DNA of 64,000 nt from Cyanobacteria bacterium auto_48_18 (GCA_036170915.1 JAVHQC010000030.1:66421-130420), one strand, 5' to 3'; positions 4,882 through 13,724 are shown, numbered from the stretch's first letter. Numbers and translations are program-made. Notes: a model not told the origin generated them from the letters alone.

Positions 4882-4913
4882 AAAAAAGCCTCGCTCACCG
4901 CGAGGCTTTTTTT
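4882..4913. terminator. Bidirectional intrinsic terminator
   Basis: aaaaaagcctcgc-tcacc-gcgaggcttttttt between convergent genes. Confidence 0.85.
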
Positions 4914-4939: not shown

Positions 4940-5065
4940 CTAAAACTCAGCCACTAGACCAAATGAGGCAATCAAAAGAATAAAGACGAAATAGAGAATG
5001 AAGAACCAGGTCCATCTGTAAATGATGTCGACTTCAGTCAGTTTTTTTGCTTTCTCTGGTGGCAT
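4940..5065 (-). CDS. 41-aa single-TM membrane peptide, last gene of the respiratory operon (not in the ORF track)
   Basis: Manual translation MPPEKAKKLTEVDIIYRWTWFFILYFVFILLIASFGLVAEF*. AGGAGA RBS at 5075-5080 on the minus strand. Lies between the MvhD-like gene and the terminator. Confidence 0.75.
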   Translation of the reverse strand: MPPEKAKKLTEVDIIYRWTWFFILYFVFILLIASFGLVAEF

Positions 5066-5090: not shown

Positions 5091-5513
5091 TTATTTTGCG
5101 GCCGGTTTAGCAGCGGCAGCTGGTTCAACCGGAAGCTTGCGCACGAAGCTTACGAATTCTTTGGCTTCAGCCAAAAATCTATCTTTCTGAGGACGGGAGA
5201 GCCAGAGAGCGAGCACGCGACGACGATCAACTGTTTTCTTCAAACCTGGTGGTCGTTGTCCAAGAAGACGTTCGCGAATCATGCGGTTGCCTTCGCGATA
5301 ATAACAATCGCCAATCTGACAACCGGTAACGATCACACCAGCAGCACCAGATTTCATCGCCGCTTCAATCATCAGCGGTTGAATCATGCCGCTACATGGC
5401 AATTTGACTACATGCAGGCCATCAATTTCTTTCACTTCGCCCTGGGCGGTGCAAACTGAATCGAGATCAGCAGCACGTTCGCAGATGAGAGTGATTACTT
5501 TTTGTTCGGACAT
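5091..5513 (-). CDS. MvhD/FlpD-like [2Fe-2S] protein (hydrogenase iron-sulfur subunit family)
   Basis: LICE, KLPCSGMIQP and GVIVTGCQIGDCYYREGN motifs. Confidence 0.88.
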   Translation of the reverse strand: MSEQKVITLICERAADLDSVCTAQGEVKEIDGLHVVKLPCSGMIQPLMIEAAMKSGAAGVIVTGCQIGDCYYREGNRMIRERLLGQRPPGLKKTVDRRRVLALWLSRPQKDRFLAEAKEFVSFVRKLPVEPAAAAKPAAK

Positions 5514-5556
5514 TACCTGTGTACCTTTGTTGTTTGTGACCCTAAGCTACTGTCTT

Positions 5557-6723
5557 TTATGCACCGGGTTTAGCTTCAGCCAGAGCCCGAATTTGAGCAG
5601 TGACATCAGTATCGAGCAAGTTCGGCAAGTCAATGGCATCGAAAGCACATGCACCCACGCAAACTCCGCAAGCAGAGCAACGGTATGGTTTGACGGTGGC
5701 CAGCAGTTTGAATCTTGAACCAGCTGGTGCCGGCACCATTTCAATGGCCTGATAAGGGCAATCGAATGAGCAGAGGCTACAGCCGACGCATTTTGTCAGC
5801 ACCACTTCTGCAGCCTCAATAGGGTTAGCGGCTTTGTACAAATTAGGCAGCGGCACCAGAACTAAACCGATGGTGGCACCAATCATCAGCACCCAATAGG
5901 TGACGAGATCAACATGGGCCATCAGCCAGTAAGGGAAGAGGAAGAACCAGTCGATATCAAAGCTGGTTGGAGCTGAGTTGATATCGGCCATTTTGCCGCT
6001 GGTGATTGGAAAAGCAAATACAAAGAGCAAGAGTACAGCCATGAGCATATAGTTGATGGCTGGTGGTGGCGTAATTACTGGTCTGGTCATGCGCACATAG
6101 TGCATCCACAAACCAAACAACAAAGTGAAAGACAAACCGATGTGAATAAAGAGGAAGTTTGAAAGTGTCAGGTTTGTAATGGCGGTGCCATTCAAGAACC
6201 ATGCTTTAAGACCAGGCCCGACTACAGGCAGAGCATCAAAAGCACTTACAGTCATACGGGTCAAAACTAATGAACGCTCGTCCCAAACCAGGTAATAACC
6301 GGTTTGACCGACAAAGAGCACCATCAGCAGTAGCACGATACCTGTCACCCACTGAATCCAGCGGTATTGACGGTAGCGGTCTGTCACCCAAACACGCAAA
6401 GCGTGCAACACAATCGTAATCACCATGGCATCACCGGCGTAACGGTGGATACCACGAATAACCGCACCCATAGGCAACTTGTCGGTAATGTAGTCAACCG
6501 ATGTCCAGGCGTTGACTAGATTGGCAGAGAAATAAGCATTATCGATGGTGGGAATGTAATAAGCGAAAAGCAAAAGACCTGAGAGGAATAAGACCCACAG
6601 GTAGAACTGAGGCAGAGCGCCGTGATAATAGAAAGGATTGTACTTATTGCTGATGACAGCATTAGTGCCTTTCTCAATTGTCAGCGCTAAGTCGGTCAGG
6701 CCTTTAGGTATCGACGTGTACAT
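5557..6723 (-). CDS. Cytochrome b (second copy) fused to a C-terminal 2x[4Fe-4S] ferredoxin domain
   Basis: RGIHRY-x-LHALR and FIHIG-x-WMHY give four His at 14-residue spacing; GYYLVWD; IDWFF; CVGCSLCSFDCP and CSACGVCVGACA. Start is ATG 6723 or the ORF-track start 6747. Confidence 0.88.
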   Translation of the reverse strand: MYTSIPKGLTDLALTIEKGTNAVISNKYNPFYYHGALPQFYLWVLFLSGLLLFAYYIPTIDNAYFSANLVNAWTSVDYITDKLPMGAVIRGIHRYAGDAMVITIVLHALRVWVTDRYRQYRWIQWVTGIVLLLMVLFVGQTGYYLVWDERSLVLTRMTVSAFDALPVVGPGLKAWFLNGTAITNLTLSNFLFIHIGLSFTLLFGLWMHYVRMTRPVITPPPAINYMLMAVLLLFVFAFPITSGKMADINSAPTSFDIDWFFLFPYWLMAHVDLVTYWVLMIGATIGLVLVPLPNLYKAANPIEAAEVVLTKCVGCSLCSFDCPYQAIEMVPAPAGSRFKLLATVKPYRCSACGVCVGACAFDAIDLPNLLDTDVTAQIRALAEAKPGA

Positions 6724-6769
6724 GATGCGGAACTCCCGTTCAACCAACCAATTAAATTACTTAAGTGGC

Positions 6770-7123
6770 TTATTTCTTAACCGGCAAAATAGTTTTTTCT
6801 TCGGCTTCTTCACGGCCGACAGCTGCAATACCAATGGCGGCCGCGATCATGGCCACACCCATAACGAGCGAATAAGCATAGTCACCATAACGTGACTCTG
6901 CTCCTGATTTTTTCAAATATTCAGTCCAAGAAGCTCCCATACTTGCTACTTGATCATAGTTAGGCAAGGGCAAAAAGAAATTCTCATTTGTCCATCTGAG
7001 CCAGAGCGGCCAGTTATCGAAAGCACCATTCATGCCAAGCTCAGCCCAGGGCATTAGCCCCGTGCATGCCAGGCATACGACAGCTCCTACGACTACTAGA
7101 ACAACGTTAATTGTCTTATCCAC
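6770..7123 (-). CDS. Small 2-TM membrane protein in the respiratory operon
   Basis: Two hydrophobic helices. A GTG start with an AAGGA RBS overlaps the upstream stop. Confidence 0.7.
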   Translation of the reverse strand: MDKTINVVLVVVGAVVCLACTGLMPWAELGMNGAFDNWPLWLRWTNENFFLPLPNYDQVASMGASWTEYLKKSGAESRYGDYAYSLVMGVAMIAAAIGIAAVGREEAEEKTILPVKK

Positions 7124-7553
7124 GGTCGATCCTTTCTTGTGCTTCAGAATCTGATGACTTTTCACCAGCGCTTTTGTTCACGCTTGCTAGTTTGTAATAT
7201 ATTTTGTCGAATAGAGGAATTTTGCGAGTGCCGTCATTTTTCGATTTTTCCTCGGCATAGATAAAGAAGGCTTGCACACCGATTAAGGCTACAGTGAGAA
7301 CACTGCCGGCTATGACATATGCCACCGCAGACAGTGACAAACCATTCTGAATTTCTCTTGTGCCTTCAAAAAACCATGACAGAGTAATCACCGAAAAAAC
7401 AAAAGCGACAAGCTTCAATGACAGTTTGATTTTGAAAGTAGGCTTGCCATGAGAAGCGCCGGGATCTTTTTCAGACCCGCCATGGCTTTTAATTTCGGCG
7501 ACGCTTCTCACTTGAGACTTCTTCTCTCCATTGTTCTTATCTTGCTTAGACAC
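7116..7553 (-). CDS. Small 2-TM membrane protein in the respiratory operon
   Basis: 145-aa ORF directly abutting the cytochrome b stop, with two hydrophobic segments. Confidence 0.7.
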   Translation of the reverse strand: MSKQDKNNGEKKSQVRSVAEIKSHGGSEKDPGASHGKPTFKIKLSLKLVAFVFSVITLSWFFEGTREIQNGLSLSAVAYVIAGSVLTVALIGVQAFFIYAEEKSKNDGTRKIPLFDKIYYKLASVNKSAGEKSSDSEAQERIDRG

Positions 7554-9425
7554 CTAAGCTGCTGCCACCGGAGCGGCAGGTTTAGGCGCTTCGGCCAGAC
7601 TCTTTTTCACCATATTGGCTTGGAAGGCTGCAAGCAAGCAGGCTACACCAGCCAGCGGTCCACCAATCATCCACCACCAGTCCACAGGCGGCACGGTGAG
7701 CGGATATCCGCCCTTAACCAGGCCAGGAGTGAGTCTATCCACCAGGGTGCAATAGTCCCAGGTCCAGCGGTTGTTGACCATGAAGTCAATTATGCTGATG
7801 TATTCAGGGTGAGGCCCTTTAACAGGATCGGTAAATTTGATGGCACTAAAGGCACCATTAGGTCCTGCTGGTGTTTCAAAGGTTGGAATAAAGCGAGTAA
7901 CGATATCGAGAGGTCCCTTGGTCTGACAAAGTCTTGCAAGTTCTTCAAGATCAGCTTTAGCAGCCGGCTCACCCAACACTTTGACATAGCCAGGATCAAG
8001 AGTAACGTGATAATTCCAGTACTCTTTGTTAACCGGCACGCCTGAATTTTTCGTACTGTGCAGTTTGCGCACAATTGCTTCCACTTTATCTGCGGTATCA
8101 CCCATGGTGGGTCTGGCAATGCCGTAGAGTGCAGCGTGACCCATAGGGTCAATGAACATTTCAGTGAGGGCCATATAGTAGTAGGTGTAGCCCACGAAGG
8201 TCTGAATGGCGCAGATGGCAAACATAATCATGGCGGGCATAAAGCCTTTGGCTTTTTCCTGCATATTTTTGTTAGTCAGCATCAGCACTGCCTGCCAGAT
8301 AATACCGATGTCGATAGTACCGTAGAGGAAGGTGCGCCAGAATGGCGGGTCATAGTGAATATCGGCAATGTTGACGATAATCAAATAAGAGAAAACAATC
8401 CAGCAAGCCGCTCCCATAAAGGTGAGCATGAGAATAAACGGCCGCTTCATGATGTTCTTTTCGTGACCGGTAATGGCTGAGTCTAAGAAAGGCAAAGCAA
8501 TTACTGATACAGGAATAATCATGGTGATGTATGTTGCCACCACCGGCTCCAGATACTTGTACATCTGATACAAGCCAAGGAAATACCAGTCAGAAAGAAT
8601 CGGCAACGGAGTGACATCTGGATCTGACCGTGAACCTTGAGCGGCTGGGAGCGCGACTGCCACAAAAGCAATCATCAAAATTAGAACCCAACGCTTTGTC
8701 CAGTTCAAAGGCACCCGCACATAAGCATTGTGGAAGAAGTAGATTTCCACAAAAATCAGCGGTATCAATGAAAAGGCCAGGTGCAGTGAGAAGAATCTAG
8801 TCATGGTGTTCTGAGTAATAGCAGCACCACCACCAAGCAAGACTTCGGCTGTATTCCAACCTAAGTGCAATGATTTATAGAGAGGCTGATAGAAGTCGCC
8901 CATGACGGCGAACTGATCCATATAAGTCGGGAAAGTAGCAAATACCTTGGTCGCCCAGAAGGCGCGCTGATTCCAGATCAATAGATATCCCGACAGTCCT
9001 GAATACATGGCGAGAAGCAAAGTCACCAGAGCAATGGCGATATTGAATTCTTTCGATGGTTTGTAATCGGCATTGATAAACATGCGATAGAGGCGCATGG
9101 TGGCAGCGATGATCATGGCGTCTGCACCATACTTGTGCATGCCTCGCATCAGCCCGCCAATCGGGATGCCGTTTTGAATATTGAGAATCGAATCGAAGGC
9201 AGCTGACTTAGTGGGCACGTACCACATGATTAAAATCAGGCCAGTGGCCATGACTATGAACCAGACCAGATAGAAAATTGGCCCTAGTGCATAGAAAGGG
9301 TTGGTTCTCGCTTCGACCTGGTGATGCTCATCGAAAATATCGATGTTGTTGATGCGAGTTTTAACCCAGTCACCAGCAGCAGTGAGAGTGCTCGCAATGC
9401 TTTTATCTTGTACTGAACTAGGCAA
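7554..9425 (-). CDS. petB: Cytochrome b (first copy; b6 + subunit IV-like fusion with C-terminal extension), heme bH ligands absent
   Basis: RGMHKYG, SGYLLIWNQRAFWA, TRFFSLH and PILSDWYFLGLY (PEWY-like). Probable TTG start at 9425 with a GGAGG RBS. Confidence 0.88.
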   Translation of the reverse strand: MPSSVQDKSIASTLTAAGDWVKTRINNIDIFDEHHQVEARTNPFYALGPIFYLVWFIVMATGLILIMWYVPTKSAAFDSILNIQNGIPIGGLMRGMHKYGADAMIIAATMRLYRMFINADYKPSKEFNIAIALVTLLLAMYSGLSGYLLIWNQRAFWATKVFATFPTYMDQFAVMGDFYQPLYKSLHLGWNTAEVLLGGGAAITQNTMTRFFSLHLAFSLIPLIFVEIYFFHNAYVRVPLNWTKRWVLILMIAFVAVALPAAQGSRSDPDVTPLPILSDWYFLGLYQMYKYLEPVVATYITMIIPVSVIALPFLDSAITGHEKNIMKRPFILMLTFMGAACWIVFSYLIIVNIADIHYDPPFWRTFLYGTIDIGIIWQAVLMLTNKNMQEKAKGFMPAMIMFAICAIQTFVGYTYYYMALTEMFIDPMGHAALYGIARPTMGDTADKVEAIVRKLHSTKNSGVPVNKEYWNYHVTLDPGYVKVLGEPAAKADLEELARLCQTKGPLDIVTRFIPTFETPAGPNGAFSAIKFTDPVKGPHPEYISIIDFMVNNRWTWDYCTLVDRLTPGLVKGGYPLTVPPVDWWWMIGGPLAGVACLLAAFQANMVKKSLAEAPKPAAPVAAA

Positions 9426-9987
9426 TTGAACCAGCCTCCAACGCAACCACTTGATACGTTTCGCCTACTCTCTTGATCTCAAATTTCCGCGGTGGACGTG
9501 GTGCAGGACCGCTCACCACTTTACCGGCCTGAGCAATATCGTAGACGCTCAAGTGGCATGGGCAGGCAAACACTGGGCCAGCGGGTTTGAAGTTGTAACC
9601 TTTAGCGCATTCATCAGGATCTTTGACGAAATTGAAGATGCAACCAAGGTGCGGACAGATGCGGCTGTAGGCCACCACATCACCAGTGGGCAATTTGACG
9701 ATGAAACCAGGAATTTTGCGAATTTCAGCGCCTTCAGGGTTGTACTCAACGTACTTCTGATTGAACATGAAAGGCAGGCAGGTCCATGGATCTGGAAAAT
9801 CTTTGTCTGTGTATGTAGGAATCGGCGGCTCGGCCAATGGTTGGTCTGATTCACCAAGAATGTCGAGCGGCTTTAGTGTCGGTCTGAGATATCTGAGAAA
9901 CGGTGATATCAACAGCCCGAACGTGGCGGCCAGCGGTAAGGCTGCTACCGTCTTTAATATGACCCTTCTTCTAACTCCGTCTTCCAT
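9418..9987 (-). CDS. petC: Rieske [2Fe-2S] protein of the cytochrome bc complex
   Basis: Tat-like RRRVILK plus TM anchor; CPHLGC and CPCHLS boxes; GPAPRP. Confidence 0.93.
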   Translation of the reverse strand: MEDGVRRRVILKTVAALPLAATFGLLISPFLRYLRPTLKPLDILGESDQPLAEPPIPTYTDKDFPDPWTCLPFMFNQKYVEYNPEGAEIRKIPGFIVKLPTGDVVAYSRICPHLGCIFNFVKDPDECAKGYNFKPAGPVFACPCHLSVYDIAQAGKVVSGPAPRPPRKFEIKRVGETYQVVALEAGSIA

Positions 9988-10011: not shown

Positions 10012-10914
10012 CTAGGTCTGCGGCTTACTTAGATTAGACTGCTCGCCTTTTTCTTTACTTTCTTTCTCTTCTTGGTCTTCTTTGACTTGACGAGCATGAG
10101 TAGCAACTTCGGAAGCATTGCTTTCGTGGAAGTGACGAACGAAGCCTACTAGCTTCCATATATATGGTTCGTCAAAGGTAATTTTCTTAGCTTTGTCTGT
10201 TTTGCCAAGGAAATTAGGCATCCCTTCCCACTTTATACCGTGAGCGATGTGATCCCACAAAACTTGATCGGTGCGATCATAAAACCTTGGGAAGTTTTGG
10301 AAGTTAGCCGGTGCTGGCTCAAGTACGTTGCCCTTCATGAGCGGGCCGTTGCCATAACCTTTAGCACCGTGGCAGACTGCACAGTTTCCGCCGAAGACCG
10401 GCGATATATCTGCTATTTCAGTATCGGTCAGCGGCGGAGTCGAGAGGCTGCGCACATAGAAAACCATGTTCCAAATTTGCGGTGGACGCAATTTTTGCTG
10501 CACTGTAGGGTGCTCGAAACCACCTTTTGTTGTTTCGCTTTCTTTACCGAATGTAATGAAATCGTACTGCTCAACAGGCTTTTGTTTTCTGCCCCAGTCT
10601 TTGCTGGAGAAATCAACGGTGGCCTTACCGGCAACAGGTTTACCATCAGCTCCGTGGCAGCTGGCGCAATTTTGGGCTTCGTAGACGCCTTTGCCATCAG
10701 GAACGGAAGGATCGTCATTGGGCCAGATCGGTTCACGATCGCCAAGAGTTACCTTTGCGGCAACCAGACCATCATCAGAAGCAGGCAAAGTCACCTTACT
10801 GTTGGTACAAGCCGAAAGGCCAACCACAAAAGGAATGATTGCCAGCAGCAGTGAAGCAACCGGGGAGAGATTTTTATGGTTACTTAAAACCATTTTGGGC
10901 TTACTAAGTGACAT
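10012..10914 (-). CDS. Diheme cytochrome c lipoprotein
   Basis: Lipobox LSAC; CASCH and CAVCH; distal Met in EGMP. Confidence 0.88.
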   Translation of the reverse strand: MSLSKPKMVLSNHKNLSPVASLLLAIIPFVVGLSACTNSKVTLPASDDGLVAAKVTLGDREPIWPNDDPSVPDGKGVYEAQNCASCHGADGKPVAGKATVDFSSKDWGRKQKPVEQYDFITFGKESETTKGGFEHPTVQQKLRPPQIWNMVFYVRSLSTPPLTDTEIADISPVFGGNCAVCHGAKGYGNGPLMKGNVLEPAPANFQNFPRFYDRTDQVLWDHIAHGIKWEGMPNFLGKTDKAKKITFDEPYIWKLVGFVRHFHESNASEVATHARQVKEDQEEKESKEKGEQSNLSKPQT

Positions 10915-11113: not shown

Positions 11114-11353
11114 TTAAGCTTCGCCTTGAGCACGAAGTTTTTCTACAGCAGCTTTGGCTTTATTGCCTAGCACCAGCTCTTCGCTATCGTCGAGCATGTC
11201 AAATTTGACTGATTCAAGATCTTCAAATTCGCCATTGCGAAATGCCCAGAGTACGCCAACTACAGCAATAGCAAAGAAGAGTCCACAAATGCCGAATGCA
11301 ATCCATAGGCCAGAGCTGAGGCTGGCTCCATTGAGAACACAATTAGGACACAT
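11114..11353 (-). CDS. ccoS: cbb3-type oxidase maturation protein CcoS-like
   Basis: TM helix followed by LWAFRNGEFEDLE (CcoS pattern WAxxxGQFDDxE). Confidence 0.8.
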   Translation of the reverse strand: MCPNCVLNGASLSSGLWIAFGICGLFFAIAVVGVLWAFRNGEFEDLESVKFDMLDDSEELVLGNKAKAAVEKLRAQGEA

Positions 11354-11364
11354 AGTACTCTCCT

Positions 11365-12309
11365 TTATTCTTTACCGTGGTGCGGTTCATAAACCTGTTT
11401 GGTCAAGACTGGAAGATGTGTAGGTTCAACAACATTGAGTTGATCAAGATTGTTGACGGTCACTTCATGATCTTTCGGCAGAGTTTTCAAATATGCCACC
11501 AGATACCATCTTTGCTCTTCAGACAATACTGATTGGAAACGCGGCATTCTTGTGCCGGTCACCCCTTCTGAAATACGGTAGAACCAATGTTCATCAGGAT
11601 ACTGTTTGTAATAATCGCGAGTCAGATTTGGTGGTTTTTTCTCAAGAGTGATGGCGTTAGGGCCATTGCCCAGACCTTCTAAACCATGGCAAGCGGCACA
11701 GTTCTGAGTGTAGATACCACGACCAGCGTTAGCTGCGGCATCAGATGCGGTATCAACGTTTTTGCGTGCTGCAAGGCCGCGACCTTGTGGAGTAGTGGGC
11801 AAATATTCATCAGGCGGAGTAACAAAAGCAGTAACGGTGCGCTTATTACCAAGAGTCTGGATGTATTGCACCAGGTCGTTCATGTCACGTTCAGACAGAT
11901 AGCTGAAGCTCGGCATAATTGAACCAGGCTTAACTGCACGTGGTGAAATCAAGTGAGCCTTTTGCCATTGCGAAGGGAAACGTCCGCCTTCATTAGTAAG
12001 GTCAGGCCCTGTGCGAGCGGTACCCAGTTGGTGCGGAGTTTCGTAAACATAGTCGCCTTCTTTGACGAGCGGCCCGTAGCCACGATCTTGAATACGAGTA
12101 AATTGCGTATGGCAATAGAAGCAACCTTCGCGTACATATATTTGACGACCGCGAGCGGCATCACCAACAGCTAGTGGAATTACTTTGTAGTCGTTGCCGC
12201 GTCCTGATGCTTTTGGATTGAAAAGCACCATGGGCATGAGCACCGTGGAGAAAATAATGATGAAGAACGTGGTGACAATGCCAATCGCACCAAGTCGGTA
12301 ACCGTACAT
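11365..12309 (-). CDS. ccoO: cbb3-type oxidase subunit II fused to a second cytochrome c domain
   Basis: GRQIYVREGCFYCHTQ, GTARTGPDL and PGSIMP motifs; second heme site CAACH. Confidence 0.9.
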   Translation of the reverse strand: MYGYRLGAIGIVTTFFIIIFSTVLMPMVLFNPKASGRGNDYKVIPLAVGDAARGRQIYVREGCFYCHTQFTRIQDRGYGPLVKEGDYVYETPHQLGTARTGPDLTNEGGRFPSQWQKAHLISPRAVKPGSIMPSFSYLSERDMNDLVQYIQTLGNKRTVTAFVTPPDEYLPTTPQGRGLAARKNVDTASDAAANAGRGIYTQNCAACHGLEGLGNGPNAITLEKKPPNLTRDYYKQYPDEHWFYRISEGVTGTRMPRFQSVLSEEQRWYLVAYLKTLPKDHEVTVNNLDQLNVVEPTHLPVLTKQVYEPHHGKE

Positions 12310-13724
12310 TAGACCTTAACCTCCCGAGCCTTGACTGTCGCATCGGCTGAAGCTCTGGGTGTATAGAGCGTTTTAAATGTGTTGTATGCAAACAAACACT
12401 GACCAGTGACAATCATGAAACCGCTAATTGCTCTCAAGAACCAGTAAGGAGGTAGCGCATTACTCCACTGGTCCACTGGATAACCCAGCGCCCAACCGGC
12501 AGATTGCACCAGACCAGCTGTTGTTAGAGACGTCATCATCAATAAGAAGCCTAAGAATTTGAGCCAGTAGTGCGCTCTAATCAGCCCTTGACTGTGCCAT
12601 TCACGGCCAGTCAAACGCGGCATGCAGTAATAAATTGATGAGGTAAGAATGAATGAGAACGTTCCCAGCAGCGCTAAGTGAGCGTGGCCAACTACCCATT
12701 GAGTAAAGTGGATATACCAGTTAATCCAGCGAGTAGCCTGGAACGGACCTTGAGTACAAGTGATCAAATAGAACATGCATGAAGTAACGGCAAAGCGCAG
12801 TGGCAAATCGGTGGCCACTTGTCCCCATTTTCCGCGCATGGTCATGAAGAAATTGGTGAGCACGGTAAGAACCGGAACCAATAAGAAAATCGACGAGATT
12901 ACGGCGATGGCTTTTAACCACTCAGGCACAGGCGATTGCAAAATGTGGTGCGTGCCGGTTGGTGCATAAAACAGAGCAATGCCCCAGAAGCCCAACATGG
13001 ACAAACCATGACTATATAGAGGGGCTTTGGTAAAGCGTGGAATCAAGAAATACATCATGCCGACACCAACAGTGGTGAACCACATGCCAAGAATATTATG
13101 GCCGTAGAACCAACCGATGATGGCGTCATTAAGACCAGGCAAAGCAACGAAAGTGCGCTGGCCGATTACGTATACAAGCGGGAACCAGAAAAGCGATCCG
13201 AGGAAATACCAGAGTGATACGTAGAGCTTTTTCACTTTACGCTGCACGATGGTCATATAAATATTGAAAGCAACAGAAACGAGACCGATAACAACAATAA
13301 CGTCGAGAATGGCGCCTAATTCGGCATATTCTCGACCTTCAGTGTTGCCATTCAATAGTGTGCAGAACGCTCCGATCATGAGGATGTTCCAGGCCCACAT
13401 CGTAAAGTTGCCCAGTCGCTCGCTGTACAGTTTGGTTTTACAAAGCGTCGGCACCATGTGGAACATGGAACCTACGTAACCCATGGACAACCAGCCGATG
13501 GCTACGGCGTTCACGTGCCACATTCTTAAGTGCGGCATAGATAGTTGCGGCACGCCGCGAATCAGGTCGGGCATAGAAAATTCGGTTCCGGCAAGCATGC
13601 CGGCGCCCATTCCCCACAACGACCACCAGAGCGCCGACAGGAAGAAGTTGCGACTGGCGCTGCCTTCCTTGGCGCTGAGAAATCTTTCTAGCAAACTTGT
13701 TTGTGCCAAACTATTGATAGACAC
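12309..13724 (-). CDS. ccoN: cbb3-type (C-family) heme-copper oxidase subunit I
   Basis: LRMWHVN, WFYGHN, FYAPTGTHH (helix VII Tyr plus CuB His pair), WVVGHAH, GREYAE. Confidence 0.93.
   Translation of the reverse strand: MSINSLAQTSLLERFLSAKEGSASRNFFLSALWWSLWGMGAGMLAGTEFSMPDLIRGVPQLSMPHLRMWHVNAVAIGWLSMGYVGSMFHMVPTLCKTKLYSERLGNFTMWAWNILMIGAFCTLLNGNTEGREYAELGAILDVIVVIGLVSVAFNIYMTIVQRKVKKLYVSLWYFLGSLFWFPLVYVIGQRTFVALPGLNDAIIGWFYGHNILGMWFTTVGVGMMYFLIPRFTKAPLYSHGLSMLGFWGIALFYAPTGTHHILQSPVPEWLKAIAVISSIFLLVPVLTVLTNFFMTMRGKWGQVATDLPLRFAVTSCMFYLITCTQGPFQATRWINWYIHFTQWVVGHAHLALLGTFSFILTSSIYYCMPRLTGREWHSQGLIRAHYWLKFLGFLLMMTSLTTAGLVQSAGWALGYPVDQWSNALPPYWFLRAISGFMIVTGQCLFAYNTFKTLYTPRASADATVKAREVKV

Follow-up and report, generated by a model that had tools for sequence, protein, structure and literature searches.

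An operon with two unlike cytochromes b in an Obscuribacterales genome: complementary losses suggest a possible asymmetric complex III with a cytoplasmic Fe-S arm

The window analysed here is a 64,000 nucleotide stretch from the Obscuribacterales genome Cyanobacteria bacterium auto_48_18 (GCA_036170915.1 JAVHQC010000030.1:66421-130420). On its minus strand lies an operon that runs from cbb3-type oxidase genes through a Rieske protein and two cytochromes b (b#1 and b#2) to an MvhD-like gene, a short membrane peptide and a terminator-like hairpin (Table 1).

Table 1. Features of the complex III-IV operon; positions are counted from the first letter of the window.
Feature	Position	Strand	Evidence and remarks
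CcoN, cbb3-type (C-family) oxygen reductase catalytic subunit	12309..13724	-	Pfam COX1 E 1.5e-80; TIGR00780 E 1.3e-81, under its cut-off
CcoO with a second, fused c-type haem domain	11365..12309	-	FixO and Cytochrom_C; two CxxCH
CcoS/FixS maturation protein	11114..11353	-	PF03597
Membrane protein, 58 residues	10921..11097	-	family-less, operon-conserved
Dihaem class I cytochrome c	10012..10914	-	two CxxCH; Cytochrom_C / CBB3; same position in distant loci
Rieske [2Fe-2S] protein, S-Y signature (predicted high-potential)	9418..9987	-	PF00355
Cytochrome b #1 with extra C-terminal helices	7554..9446	-	H104/H222, R118, Y236, WNQRAFWA, SDWY
Conserved small membrane protein 1, encoded between b#1 and b#2	7116..7553	-	no Pfam family above cut-off
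Conserved small membrane protein 2, encoded between b#1 and b#2	6770..7123	-	no family
Cytochrome b #2 with C-terminal 2x[4Fe-4S] domain (predicted cytoplasmic side)	5557..6747	-	four haem His, L162, IDWF
MvhD/FlpD-like [2Fe-2S] protein	5091..5513	-	four conserved Cys
Single-helix membrane peptide, 41 residues	4940..5065	-	C-terminal part of b#1 in other lineages
Terminator-like hairpin, operon end	4882..4912	.	13-pair stem, A- and T-runs; pattern match only

The module is wider than an earlier, sequence-only reading of this DNA had it, taking in two small membrane ORFs, the 41-residue peptide and the upstream dihaem cytochrome c. The three small membrane subunits belong to it; Pfam returned no family for the small membrane proteins, and the ESM Atlas gave no usable match for the C-terminal part of b#1 or for small protein 2. 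The start of b#1 is probably the TTG at 9425, and a promoter scan stayed at chance level. Both cytochromes b, the only ones in the genome (86% complete), are fused forms rather than split b6 plus subunit IV, and both lack the haem ci Cys (CxGG), b#1 having ALGP and b#2 YHGA at this motif. The c-type partner is the upstream dihaem class I cytochrome c, not c1 or f, and this protein is likely the acceptor of the Rieske electron. The operon gene list contains no flavin NAD(P) oxidoreductase subunit, multihaem cytochrome c, flavoprotein or named electron acceptor.

Two of the four haem His are found in b#1, and all four in b#2. As the sequence-only reading had stated, b#1 retains the haem bL ligands H104 (9135-9137) and H222 (8781-8783, in ORF-track numbering from 9446) and a PEWY-like SDWY (residues 285-288), while the haem bH positions are occupied by R118 (9093-9095) and Y236 (8739-8741). 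The His-to-Arg change is borne out by alignment to solved cytochromes b6, in which R118 takes the place of the second haem His. Y236 matches the fourth His only where a one-residue gap is opened, in two of the alignments; a His at +14 or +15 is absent from all of them. The replacement extends to orthologues. Among 76 full-length b#1 from Vampirovibrionia (loci L031-L118; 25 fragments left out), position 118 is Arg in 72 and Lys in four, and position 236 is Tyr in all. In 120 more distant homologues position 118 is again Arg (116) or Lys (four), and position 236 is Tyr in 44, Leu in 27, Arg in 17, Phe in 16, His in 15 and Gln in one. Because it is conserved across homologues, the R118 change in this b#1 is no sequencing accident. 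The helix C motif W-x-x-G of four-His cytochromes b (W 94/96, G 95/96) is kept in 82/82 b#2, and its Gly persists in only 30/76 and 6/120 b#1. The Qo site of b#1 is invariant, with SDWY and the cd1 Trp-Ala present in 76/76 and 120/120, and an AF2 model of b#1 (pLDDT 80) matches bc1 cytochrome b.

Other candidate bH ligands were considered. H239 is present in this b#1, yet it recurs in only 3/76 Vampirovibrionia and 4/120 distant proteins; H41, H194 and H364 are invariant in close homologues, not across the class or beyond; and Tyr236 varies too much among the 120 distant homologues to be an obligatory ligand. Since the fourth position varies and H239 is not conserved, haem bH of b#1 has most likely been lost and not re-ligated.

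In b#2, H101, H115, H202 and H216 are all in place beside an IDWF motif, and the fused 2x[4Fe-4S] domain recognized earlier is seen as two CxxCxxCxxxC motifs (C320-330 and C357-367); the four His and eight Cys are complete in 82/82 b#2. A Leu or Ile (L162 here) occupies, in 82/82 and a further 7/7 proteins, a position that is Ala or Gly in 89/96 four-His proteins and that we take to be R. capsulatus G158. The cd1 Trp is lost as well, and the Qo site of b#2 is, to judge from these residues, degenerate. Canonically, the chain that binds both haems also carries the Qo motif and the cd1 helix; here the Qo elements lie on b#1 only. Past the fourth His of b#2 the basic residues R219 and R222 (or His) are invariant and could mark a candidate Qi site; H42, also considered, is invariant in Vampirovibrionia only. 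A His at +5 from the fourth ligand has a role in Qi of bc1; in 82/82 b#2 this position is Thr, Ala, Ser or Gln.

The gene that follows b#2 is indeed MvhD-like (Pfam FlpD/MvhD, E 2.5e-19): Cys40, Cys65 and Cys70 align to Cys of the MvhD chain 5odc_D, while Cys11 falls within the N-terminal Cys stretch of the alignment. In 13/13 longer matches MvhD and the b#2 homologue make up one protein, and such fusions nest within the b#2 clade with a support of 100 in a quick-search tree of 81 hand-picked rows, outside of which stand the named Magnetospirillum and Turneriella proteins. The same quick search of 81 hand-picked rows groups b#1 with b#2 at a support of 65 only, and an origin of the pair in a single duplication was not adopted.

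The complementary loss on which the sequence-only reading laid most weight, of the bH site in b#1 and the Qo site in b#2, is conserved, and b#1, b#2 and MvhD strictly co-occur. Both cytochromes b are full length in 73 of the loci L031-L118, FlpD accompanies b#1 in 81/82 class genomes, and b#2 and MvhD were seen in 8/12 metagenome b#1 loci, the remaining four ending too soon; wherever a b#1 locus extends far enough downstream, b#2 is there. The 41-residue peptide, found in 90/99 loci, corresponds to the C-terminus of b#1-family proteins (e.g. P0144, P0147, P0149, P0339); as a peptide encoded behind MvhD is elsewhere fused to b#1, b#2 and MvhD sit between parts of a b#1 complex. The wiring to cbb3 that was also proposed earlier, and whose cbb3 genes this operon carries, would be lineage-specific: four loci with flanks of ~9 kb have the module, including b#2 and MvhD, and no haem-copper oxidase nearby (CcoN search on both strands; Pfam on 49/109 plus-strand ORFs). 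These loci also weaken the idea that b#2 is a dedicated cbb3 helper. In a phylum-wide sample b#1 occurred in 3/301 genomes, all of one class, and some relatives have a separate canonical bc complex in addition.

We consider it quite probable that b#1 and b#2 form a heterodimer. A complex model of both chains with four haems gave weak support (score 0.48; best of three controls 0.00), with at least 78% of contacts agreeing between runs and a partner pLDDT of at least 74. The mark that this model passes was reached by 116/157 solved pairs vs 2/215 mismatched pairs, yet scores of 0.60 or under include only 18/157 solved pairs and both passing mismatches, and the pass may be explained by likeness to solved cytochrome b dimers. 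As the heterodimer alone was modelled, the score does not rank it against homodimers. A parallel comes from engineered Rhodobacter bc1 dimers, in which, according to the available part of the text, G158W and H212N halves that are cross-inactivated sustain growth, whereas symmetric H212N does not (PMC4152375). The natural b#1/b#2 pattern is that of these dimers: one half without haem bH, the other blocked at Qo, and bL-bL transfer obligatory, as proposed here. The engineered enzymes are man-made, however, end at a Qi site and have no Fe-S arm.

The Rieske protein adjoining cytochrome b has the CxHxGC and CxCH ligands. Its S-Y signature recurs in 71/74 operon Rieske proteins and a further 9/9, whereas 10/11 canonical complexes in this class have G-Y, and of 48 Rieske proteins beside other cytochromes b three have S-Y. 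By a published rule S-Y denotes a high-potential Rieske cluster (PMC4122944); the rule is an approximate predictor of potential. The genome also contains futalosine (menaquinone) genes, and together with the predicted high-potential Rieske protein they provide a thermodynamic hint of forward flow, in which the low-potential electron would be sent out through the Fe-S arm. A like mismatch of Rieske protein and menaquinone underlies the proposal of NAD(P)H formation by anammox complexes (PMC12954380).

The sequences themselves show the two complementary losses, how well these are conserved, the linkage of the genes and the Rieske signature. We read them, with a probability of roughly 45%, as signs of an asymmetric three-haem Rieske/cytochrome b dimer that would export electrons forward to the Fe-S arm; dimer composition, haem count, direction and acceptor are what we infer. 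Menaquinol would be oxidized solely at the Qo site of b#1. One electron would reach cbb3 and O2 by way of the Rieske protein and cytochrome c. The other would move from bL of b#1 to bL and then bH of b#2 and exit via the 2x[4Fe-4S] domain and then the MvhD-like cluster, to be taken up in the cytoplasm by a low-potential acceptor, probably ferredoxin. This acceptor might be re-oxidized by complex I or used via Hox, and the acceptor/complex I loop might stand in for the Qi half of a Q-cycle, both suggestions being speculative. For the forward direction taken on its own we would give somewhat less than even odds. By a symmetry rule (arithmetic), bH is estimated at ~-310 to -330 mV, slightly uphill to a typical ferredoxin at ~-400 mV, which weighs against this reading. 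Complex I in this genome lacks NuoEFG of its own in the assembly, and reduced ferredoxin appears to be the respiratory input.

That last point speaks for a reversal of the arm. The same heterodimer could have a Qi site on b#2, with a Q-cycle spanning the dimer from Qo on b#1 to Qi on b#2. The Fe-S arm would then serve as an inward feed from reduced ferredoxin, or as a regulator or safety valve. All the architectural evidence applies as well to this arrangement, which we regard as unlikely though serious: R219 and R222/H, with H42 in Vampirovibrionia, would line the n-side quinone pocket of b#2, the engineered dimers complete their cycle in this way (PMC4152375, available part), and n-side ferredoxin injection has been discussed for b6f cyclic flow in the accessible part of PMC7908018. 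The absence from b#2 of both the His past the fourth ligand and the haem ci Cys weighs against it, and with a G-Y Rieske serving a plain menaquinol Q-cycle in the same class, the conserved S-Y would be left unexplained.

It is improbable, in our estimation, that the operon encodes two separate enzymes: a b#1 homodimer that serves as a simplified quinol:cytochrome c reductase and runs no Q-cycle, alongside b#2 with MvhD as an independent ferredoxin:quinone oxidoreductase or a haem-copper oxidase helper. Cytochrome b-FeS-MvhD fusions that lack a Rieske protein have been published (PMC4122944) and nest in the b#2 clade, so that b#2 does not depend on b#1 in every setting; one such fusion lies in an eNOR operon, according to the part available of 10.64898/2026.01.22.701106, the genome has no FixG_C match (no CcoG), and the heterodimer score is weak. 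Yet b#2 and MvhD follow b#1 even in the four well-flanked oxidase-free loci, and do so wherever downstream DNA suffices, other lineages carry the operon's last gene as part of b#1, and bc1 with symmetric bH loss is non-functional in vivo (PMC4152375, available part). We think it very improbable that b#1 works alone in a modified cycle, its bH site occupied by a further haem or another cofactor with unusual ligation (such as Tyr236 or a single His). The pocket residues R121 and G55, with Y236 and E234, are invariant in the 76 Vampirovibrionia b#1, and 15/120 distant homologues keep the fourth His; against this, position 236 is Leu, Arg, Phe or Gln in 61/120 (Arg in two cultured Holophagaceae b#1-type proteins), no usual haem ligand ever occurs at 118, and none of H239, H41, H194 and H364 is invariant.

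Soo et al. reportedly described a melainabacterial complex III-IV operon in 2017. That operon matches the present one in its C-family oxidase, its two cytochrome b genes and its Obscuribacterales genome, and the sequence-only reading had likewise mentioned two-cytochrome-b complex III-IV operons of Melainabacteria (cited in 10.1101/531145; also PMC6349859). The available parts of these two sources make no mention of lost His, Fe-S fusion, MvhD or a heterodimer, and in PMC6349859 the genes are annotated as b6f subunits. With bc1, b6f and the Firmicute/heliobacterial b6c complexes the module shares the Rieske protein, cytochrome b fold, Qo elements, c-type acceptor and gene order; it differs in its two unlike cytochromes b, one without bH ligands and the other without a Qo pocket, in the cytoplasmic Fe-S arm, in lacking the haem ci Cys and in three small novel membrane subunits. 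The PDWF-FeS clade (Kao and Hunte, 2014; PMC4122944) combines a four-His cytochrome b, a 4Fe-4S domain and MvhD, like b#2 and its neighbour, but there MvhD is fused and the cluster has no Rieske gene, whereas here MvhD is separate and a Rieske gene and a His-less partner are present; sequences missing any of the four His were dropped from that study, which placed b#1 out of its scope. The anammox complexes Kuste4569-4574 and Kustd1480-1485 (PMC12954380) join a high-potential Rieske protein to menaquinone, a cytoplasmic Fe-S chain and a proposed export of low-potential electrons; in the present module the Rieske potential and the quinone are predicted from the S-Y signature and futalosine genes. 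The anammox complexes are modelled as homodimers with split b6 and subunit IV, haem cN, a flavin NAD(P) oxidoreductase and multihaem cytochromes, none of which is found here.

Three elements are already in print: the operon itself, the fusion of cytochrome b, FeS domain and MvhD, and the engineered cross-inactivated dimers. Literature searches, which did not extend to Soo 2017, Dibrova 2013 or ten Brink 2013, returned no account of the His loss, the complementary loss or the heterodimer, nor did the supplementary text of PMC5600118 (figures aside) or part of the PMC4122944 supplements match the His loss or heterodimer. Electron transfer between the halves of bc dimers has so far been probed through engineered heterodimers only, and the natural enzyme here seems to make this path compulsory. 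If the exit is ferredoxin, O2 respiration would power a route from quinol to low-potential reductant, previously proposed for anammox complexes only. A wider claim, that an obligately asymmetric complex III reduces ferredoxin by O2-driven quinol bifurcation, with all low-potential electrons crossing from bL to bL, and that a 'ferredoxin loop', closed by a ferredoxin-dependent complex I that passes them back to menaquinone, takes the place of the Q-cycle in a number of bacterial phyla, the aerobic sister group of oxygenic cyanobacteria among them, we consider doubtful at present. The module is the main complex III of aerobic Vampirovibrionia and bears on the origin of aerobic respiration beside the cyanobacteria. 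Proteins of the b#1 type are also known from the isolates Mesoterricola silvestris and Geothrix sp. 21YS21S-2, which may offer an organism for tests.

The two cytochrome b genes lie in one minus-strand operon, which reads ccoN, ccoO with an extra haem domain, ccoS, a 58-residue membrane protein, a dihaem cytochrome c, the Rieske protein, cytochrome b #1 (b#1), two small membrane proteins, cytochrome b #2 (b#2), the [2Fe-2S] protein MvhD (FlpD), a 41-residue peptide and a terminator-like hairpin, with short intergenic gaps or overlaps from end to end. Such a two-cytochrome-b complex III–IV operon of Melainabacteria is, as the sequence-only reading said, already in print (10.1101/531145, citing Soo 2017; PMC6349859 and its preprint). 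Here we argue that it most likely encodes an asymmetric three-haem Rieske/cytochrome b dimer with an Fe-S exit, a conserved and widespread variant; we put the probability of this architecture at about 0.75.

Gene order is identical in all sufficiently long Vampirovibrionia loci holding the operon (L031–L118), with both cytochromes b full length in 73 of them; the two small membrane proteins escaped BLAST detection in most of the divergent orders. Among 151 genomes of the class that are at least 85% complete, b#1 occurs in 82 (E 1e-90) and FlpD in 88, the two together in 81 of the 82 b#1-bearing genomes, and of the seven genomes with FlpD alone at least one (G041, locus L117) does carry a b#1 beneath the E 1e-90 cut; these genomes are related by kinship, so the counts are descriptive, with no statistical test. 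The source genome (86% complete), which the names of its nearest homologues assign to the Obscuribacterales in the class Vampirovibrionia, holds no further cytochrome b of the b#1/b#2 family. In the cbb3 part a CcoP/CcoQ gene is not clearly seen, and CcoG (FixG_C) has no match anywhere in this genome.

Coordinates of the features discussed (window positions, except for the orphan Rieske gene)
Feature	Position	Strand	Remarks
cbb3 part	11365-13724	-	CcoO bears the second haem domain
b#1	7554-9446	-	
b#1 C-terminal extension	7557-8246	-	~230 residues; predicted fold of good confidence
b#2	5557-6747	-	
MvhD/FlpD	5091-5513	-	
41-residue membrane peptide	4940-5065	-	ribosome-binding site; shorter than usual ORF limits
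Orphan Rieske gene	G000:C6:227823-228449	-	43% identity to operon Rieske

The residues and coordinates of the sequence-only reading proved correct throughout. When b#1 is aligned to solved cytochromes b6, H104 and H222 occupy the haem bL ligand positions while R118 and Y236 fall on the haem bH ligands, which bears out the proposed His-to-Arg/Tyr change; b#1 thus does not have the four His that ligate bL and bH in a canonical cytochrome b. Position 118 is Arg in 72 and Lys in four of the 76 full-length b#1 proteins from L031–L118, and position 236 is Tyr in all 76. More distant members, reached by a 50% cluster-representative search and a profile search, carry the source labels Armatimonadota, Fimbriimonadaceae, Holophagaceae and others. 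Among the 120 best of 606 profile-search matches, position 118 is again always basic (Arg 116, Lys 4, His 0), but position 236 varies (Tyr 44, Leu 27, Arg 17, Phe 16, His 15, Gln 1). This variation removes Tyr236 as an obligatory substitute ligand, and His239, previously named as a possible alternative, is present in only three of the 76. Since neither is required, the simplest reading is that haem bH would be absent from b#1.

E234 of b#1 (with R244), a Glu two residues ahead of the lost fourth His, is invariant (76/76 and 120/120) at a position where four-His cytochromes b have small or hydrophobic residues; it may take part in a salt bridge within the empty haem pocket, or in a proton path. 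The C-terminal extension, which is shorter or different in other orders, has no match in Pfam or Atlas. Mesoterricola silvestris and Geothrix sp. 21YS21S-2 are on record with b#1-type proteins that share its His pattern and SDWY, which may open the way to direct tests.

The losses in the two proteins are complementary, as had been proposed, and both are conserved. The Qo elements of b#1 (SDWY, cd1 Trp-Ala) are without exception in the 76 and in the best 120 of 606. All 82 b#2 compared keep the four His as well as W-x-x-G in helix C, while their Qo motif is indeed degenerate, Asp being its sole invariant residue, and the cd1 Trp is gone. The residue following that Trp position is Leu/Ile in 82/82 and in 7/7 distant partners, against Ala in 80 and Gly in nine of 96 four-His cytochromes b. 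By alignment this is the Gly/Ala site after the cd1 Trp, which we take to be G158 of R. capsulatus. There, G158W blocks Qo and H212N strips haem bH; a dimer with one mutation in each half sustains growth via the bL–bL bridge, whereas a symmetric H212N dimer does not (PMC4152375). The b#1/b#2 pair has the same design as these engineered dimers, bH being lost in one half and Qo in the other.

That b#1 nevertheless retains a haem at the bH site is very improbable, even though the pocket residues R121 and G55 never vary and the 15 distant sequences still have the fourth His. A further question is whether b#2 belongs with b#1. b#2 carries two 4Fe-4S motifs, and homologues of it fused to MvhD occur without a Rieske gene (PMC4122944; 13/13 of the longer matches carry FlpD) and also in an eNOR operon (10.64898/2026.01.22.701106); b#2 could thus serve the oxidase instead, as an enzyme separate from b#1. 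Against this stands the metagenome scan: of the best 80 of at least 591 loci, 12 have a b#1-type gene, with b#2 and MvhD downstream in eight and the other four ending too early, and the remaining 68 (many short) have no MvhD match. Outside Vampirovibrionia, L132, L134, L139 and L140 have neither a CcoN homologue nor a COX1 family member within ~9 kb either side (FixO lies upstream of the module in L136), so it is b#1, not the oxidase, that b#2 and MvhD accompany. Moreover, the 41-residue peptide, found downstream of MvhD in 90/99 loci, is the fused C-terminal part of b#1 in other lineages, so that b#2 and MvhD are enclosed by pieces of the b#1 complex. A tree of 81 chosen rows separates a b#1 clade (96) from one of b#2 with the fusions (100), the fusions nested within the latter; partners from the same loci group alike, and the b#1–b#2 sister relation has a support of 65 only. 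A heterodimer model (b#1 first 410 residues, b#2, four haems) gave weak support, scoring 0.48 against 0.00 for the best control, with at least 78% of contacts shared among runs and partner pLDDT of at least 74. Of the solved pairs 116/157 came up to the mark and of the mismatched pairs 2/215, but with a score no higher than 0.60 just 18 solved pairs of the 157 did so, as did both mismatched ones, and likeness to solved cytochrome b dimers may explain the score. We consider separate enzymes improbable and a b#1/b#2 heterodimer probable.

In such a heterodimer the low-potential electron would leave through the Fe-S arm (4Fe-4S of b#2, MvhD) to a cytoplasmic acceptor. The signature that the Rieske protein forms with its second and fourth residues after CxCH reads S-Y in 71/74 operon proteins and 9/9 metagenome b#1 loci examined, G-Y in 10/11 canonical complexes of the class, and S-Y in 3/48 cases beside other cytochromes b. 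S-Y predicts >+260 mV, and PDWY-type menaquinol complexes have been seen only with lower-potential Rieske proteins alongside (PMC4122944). The genome has two MqnA/MqnD matches above the cut-off, two MqnC-like matches below it and no MenB match above it; plastoquinone genes are reported missing from Vampirovibrionia (PMC12998194). Rieske and bL potentials are described as symmetric about the quinone (PMC12954380), which by our own arithmetic, with +300 mV assumed, would place bL near -450 mV and bH near -320 mV, conditions like those which the same source suggests for anammox complexes that form NAD(P)H. Signature, menaquinone genes and symmetry together favour outflow, and we rate forward export at slightly under even odds. 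The operon has no acceptor gene; the complex I cluster lacks nuoEFG, the sole NuoF-like gene is in the hox cluster, and a small 2x4Fe-4S ferredoxin is present, making ferredoxin the likely acceptor, by a step that, judged by standard potentials, would be somewhat endergonic. A cross-dimer Q-cycle with Qi on b#2, or inward flow from ferredoxin (for n-side input see PMC7908018), is a less probable alternative: the n-side pocket of b#2 keeps invariant basic residues, but the protein has neither the usual Qi His nor the haem ci Cys.

The fusions correspond to the PDWF-FeS clade described by Kao and Hunte, whose study dropped sequences missing any of the four His (PMC4122944). Dibrova 2017 treats a different His-less subfamily, K, from cyanobacteria, together with an SxWF subfamily, with no description of the b#1/b#2 pair in the parts covered; the passages covered of PMC5700660 and PMC13386864 hold nothing specific to the system. 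The complementary loss did not turn up in the literature searched; Soo 2017, Dibrova 2013, ten Brink 2013 or supplements may mention it.

Outside Vampirovibrionia a polyprenyl synthetase gene follows the module in 5/5 loci (L132, L133, L134, L139, L140), and ccm genes precede it in L132, L134 and L139. The source genome also has hoxEFU with NiFe hydrogenase subunits, the complex I cluster and a hydrogenase-4-like membrane complex (L212, L213, L214). Operons 57–93% identical to that of the window occur in assemblies that bear the names Flavobacterium, Chloroflexota, Proteobacteria or Bryobacterales (L040, L068, L099, L108), probably through mislabelling or misbinning. The second, orphan Rieske gene has altered ligand boxes and no adjoining cytochrome b, and some Vampirovibrionia (L119–L130) have a canonical four-His PEWY/PEWF cytochrome b with a G-Y Rieske protein, beside or in place of the b#1/b#2 system.
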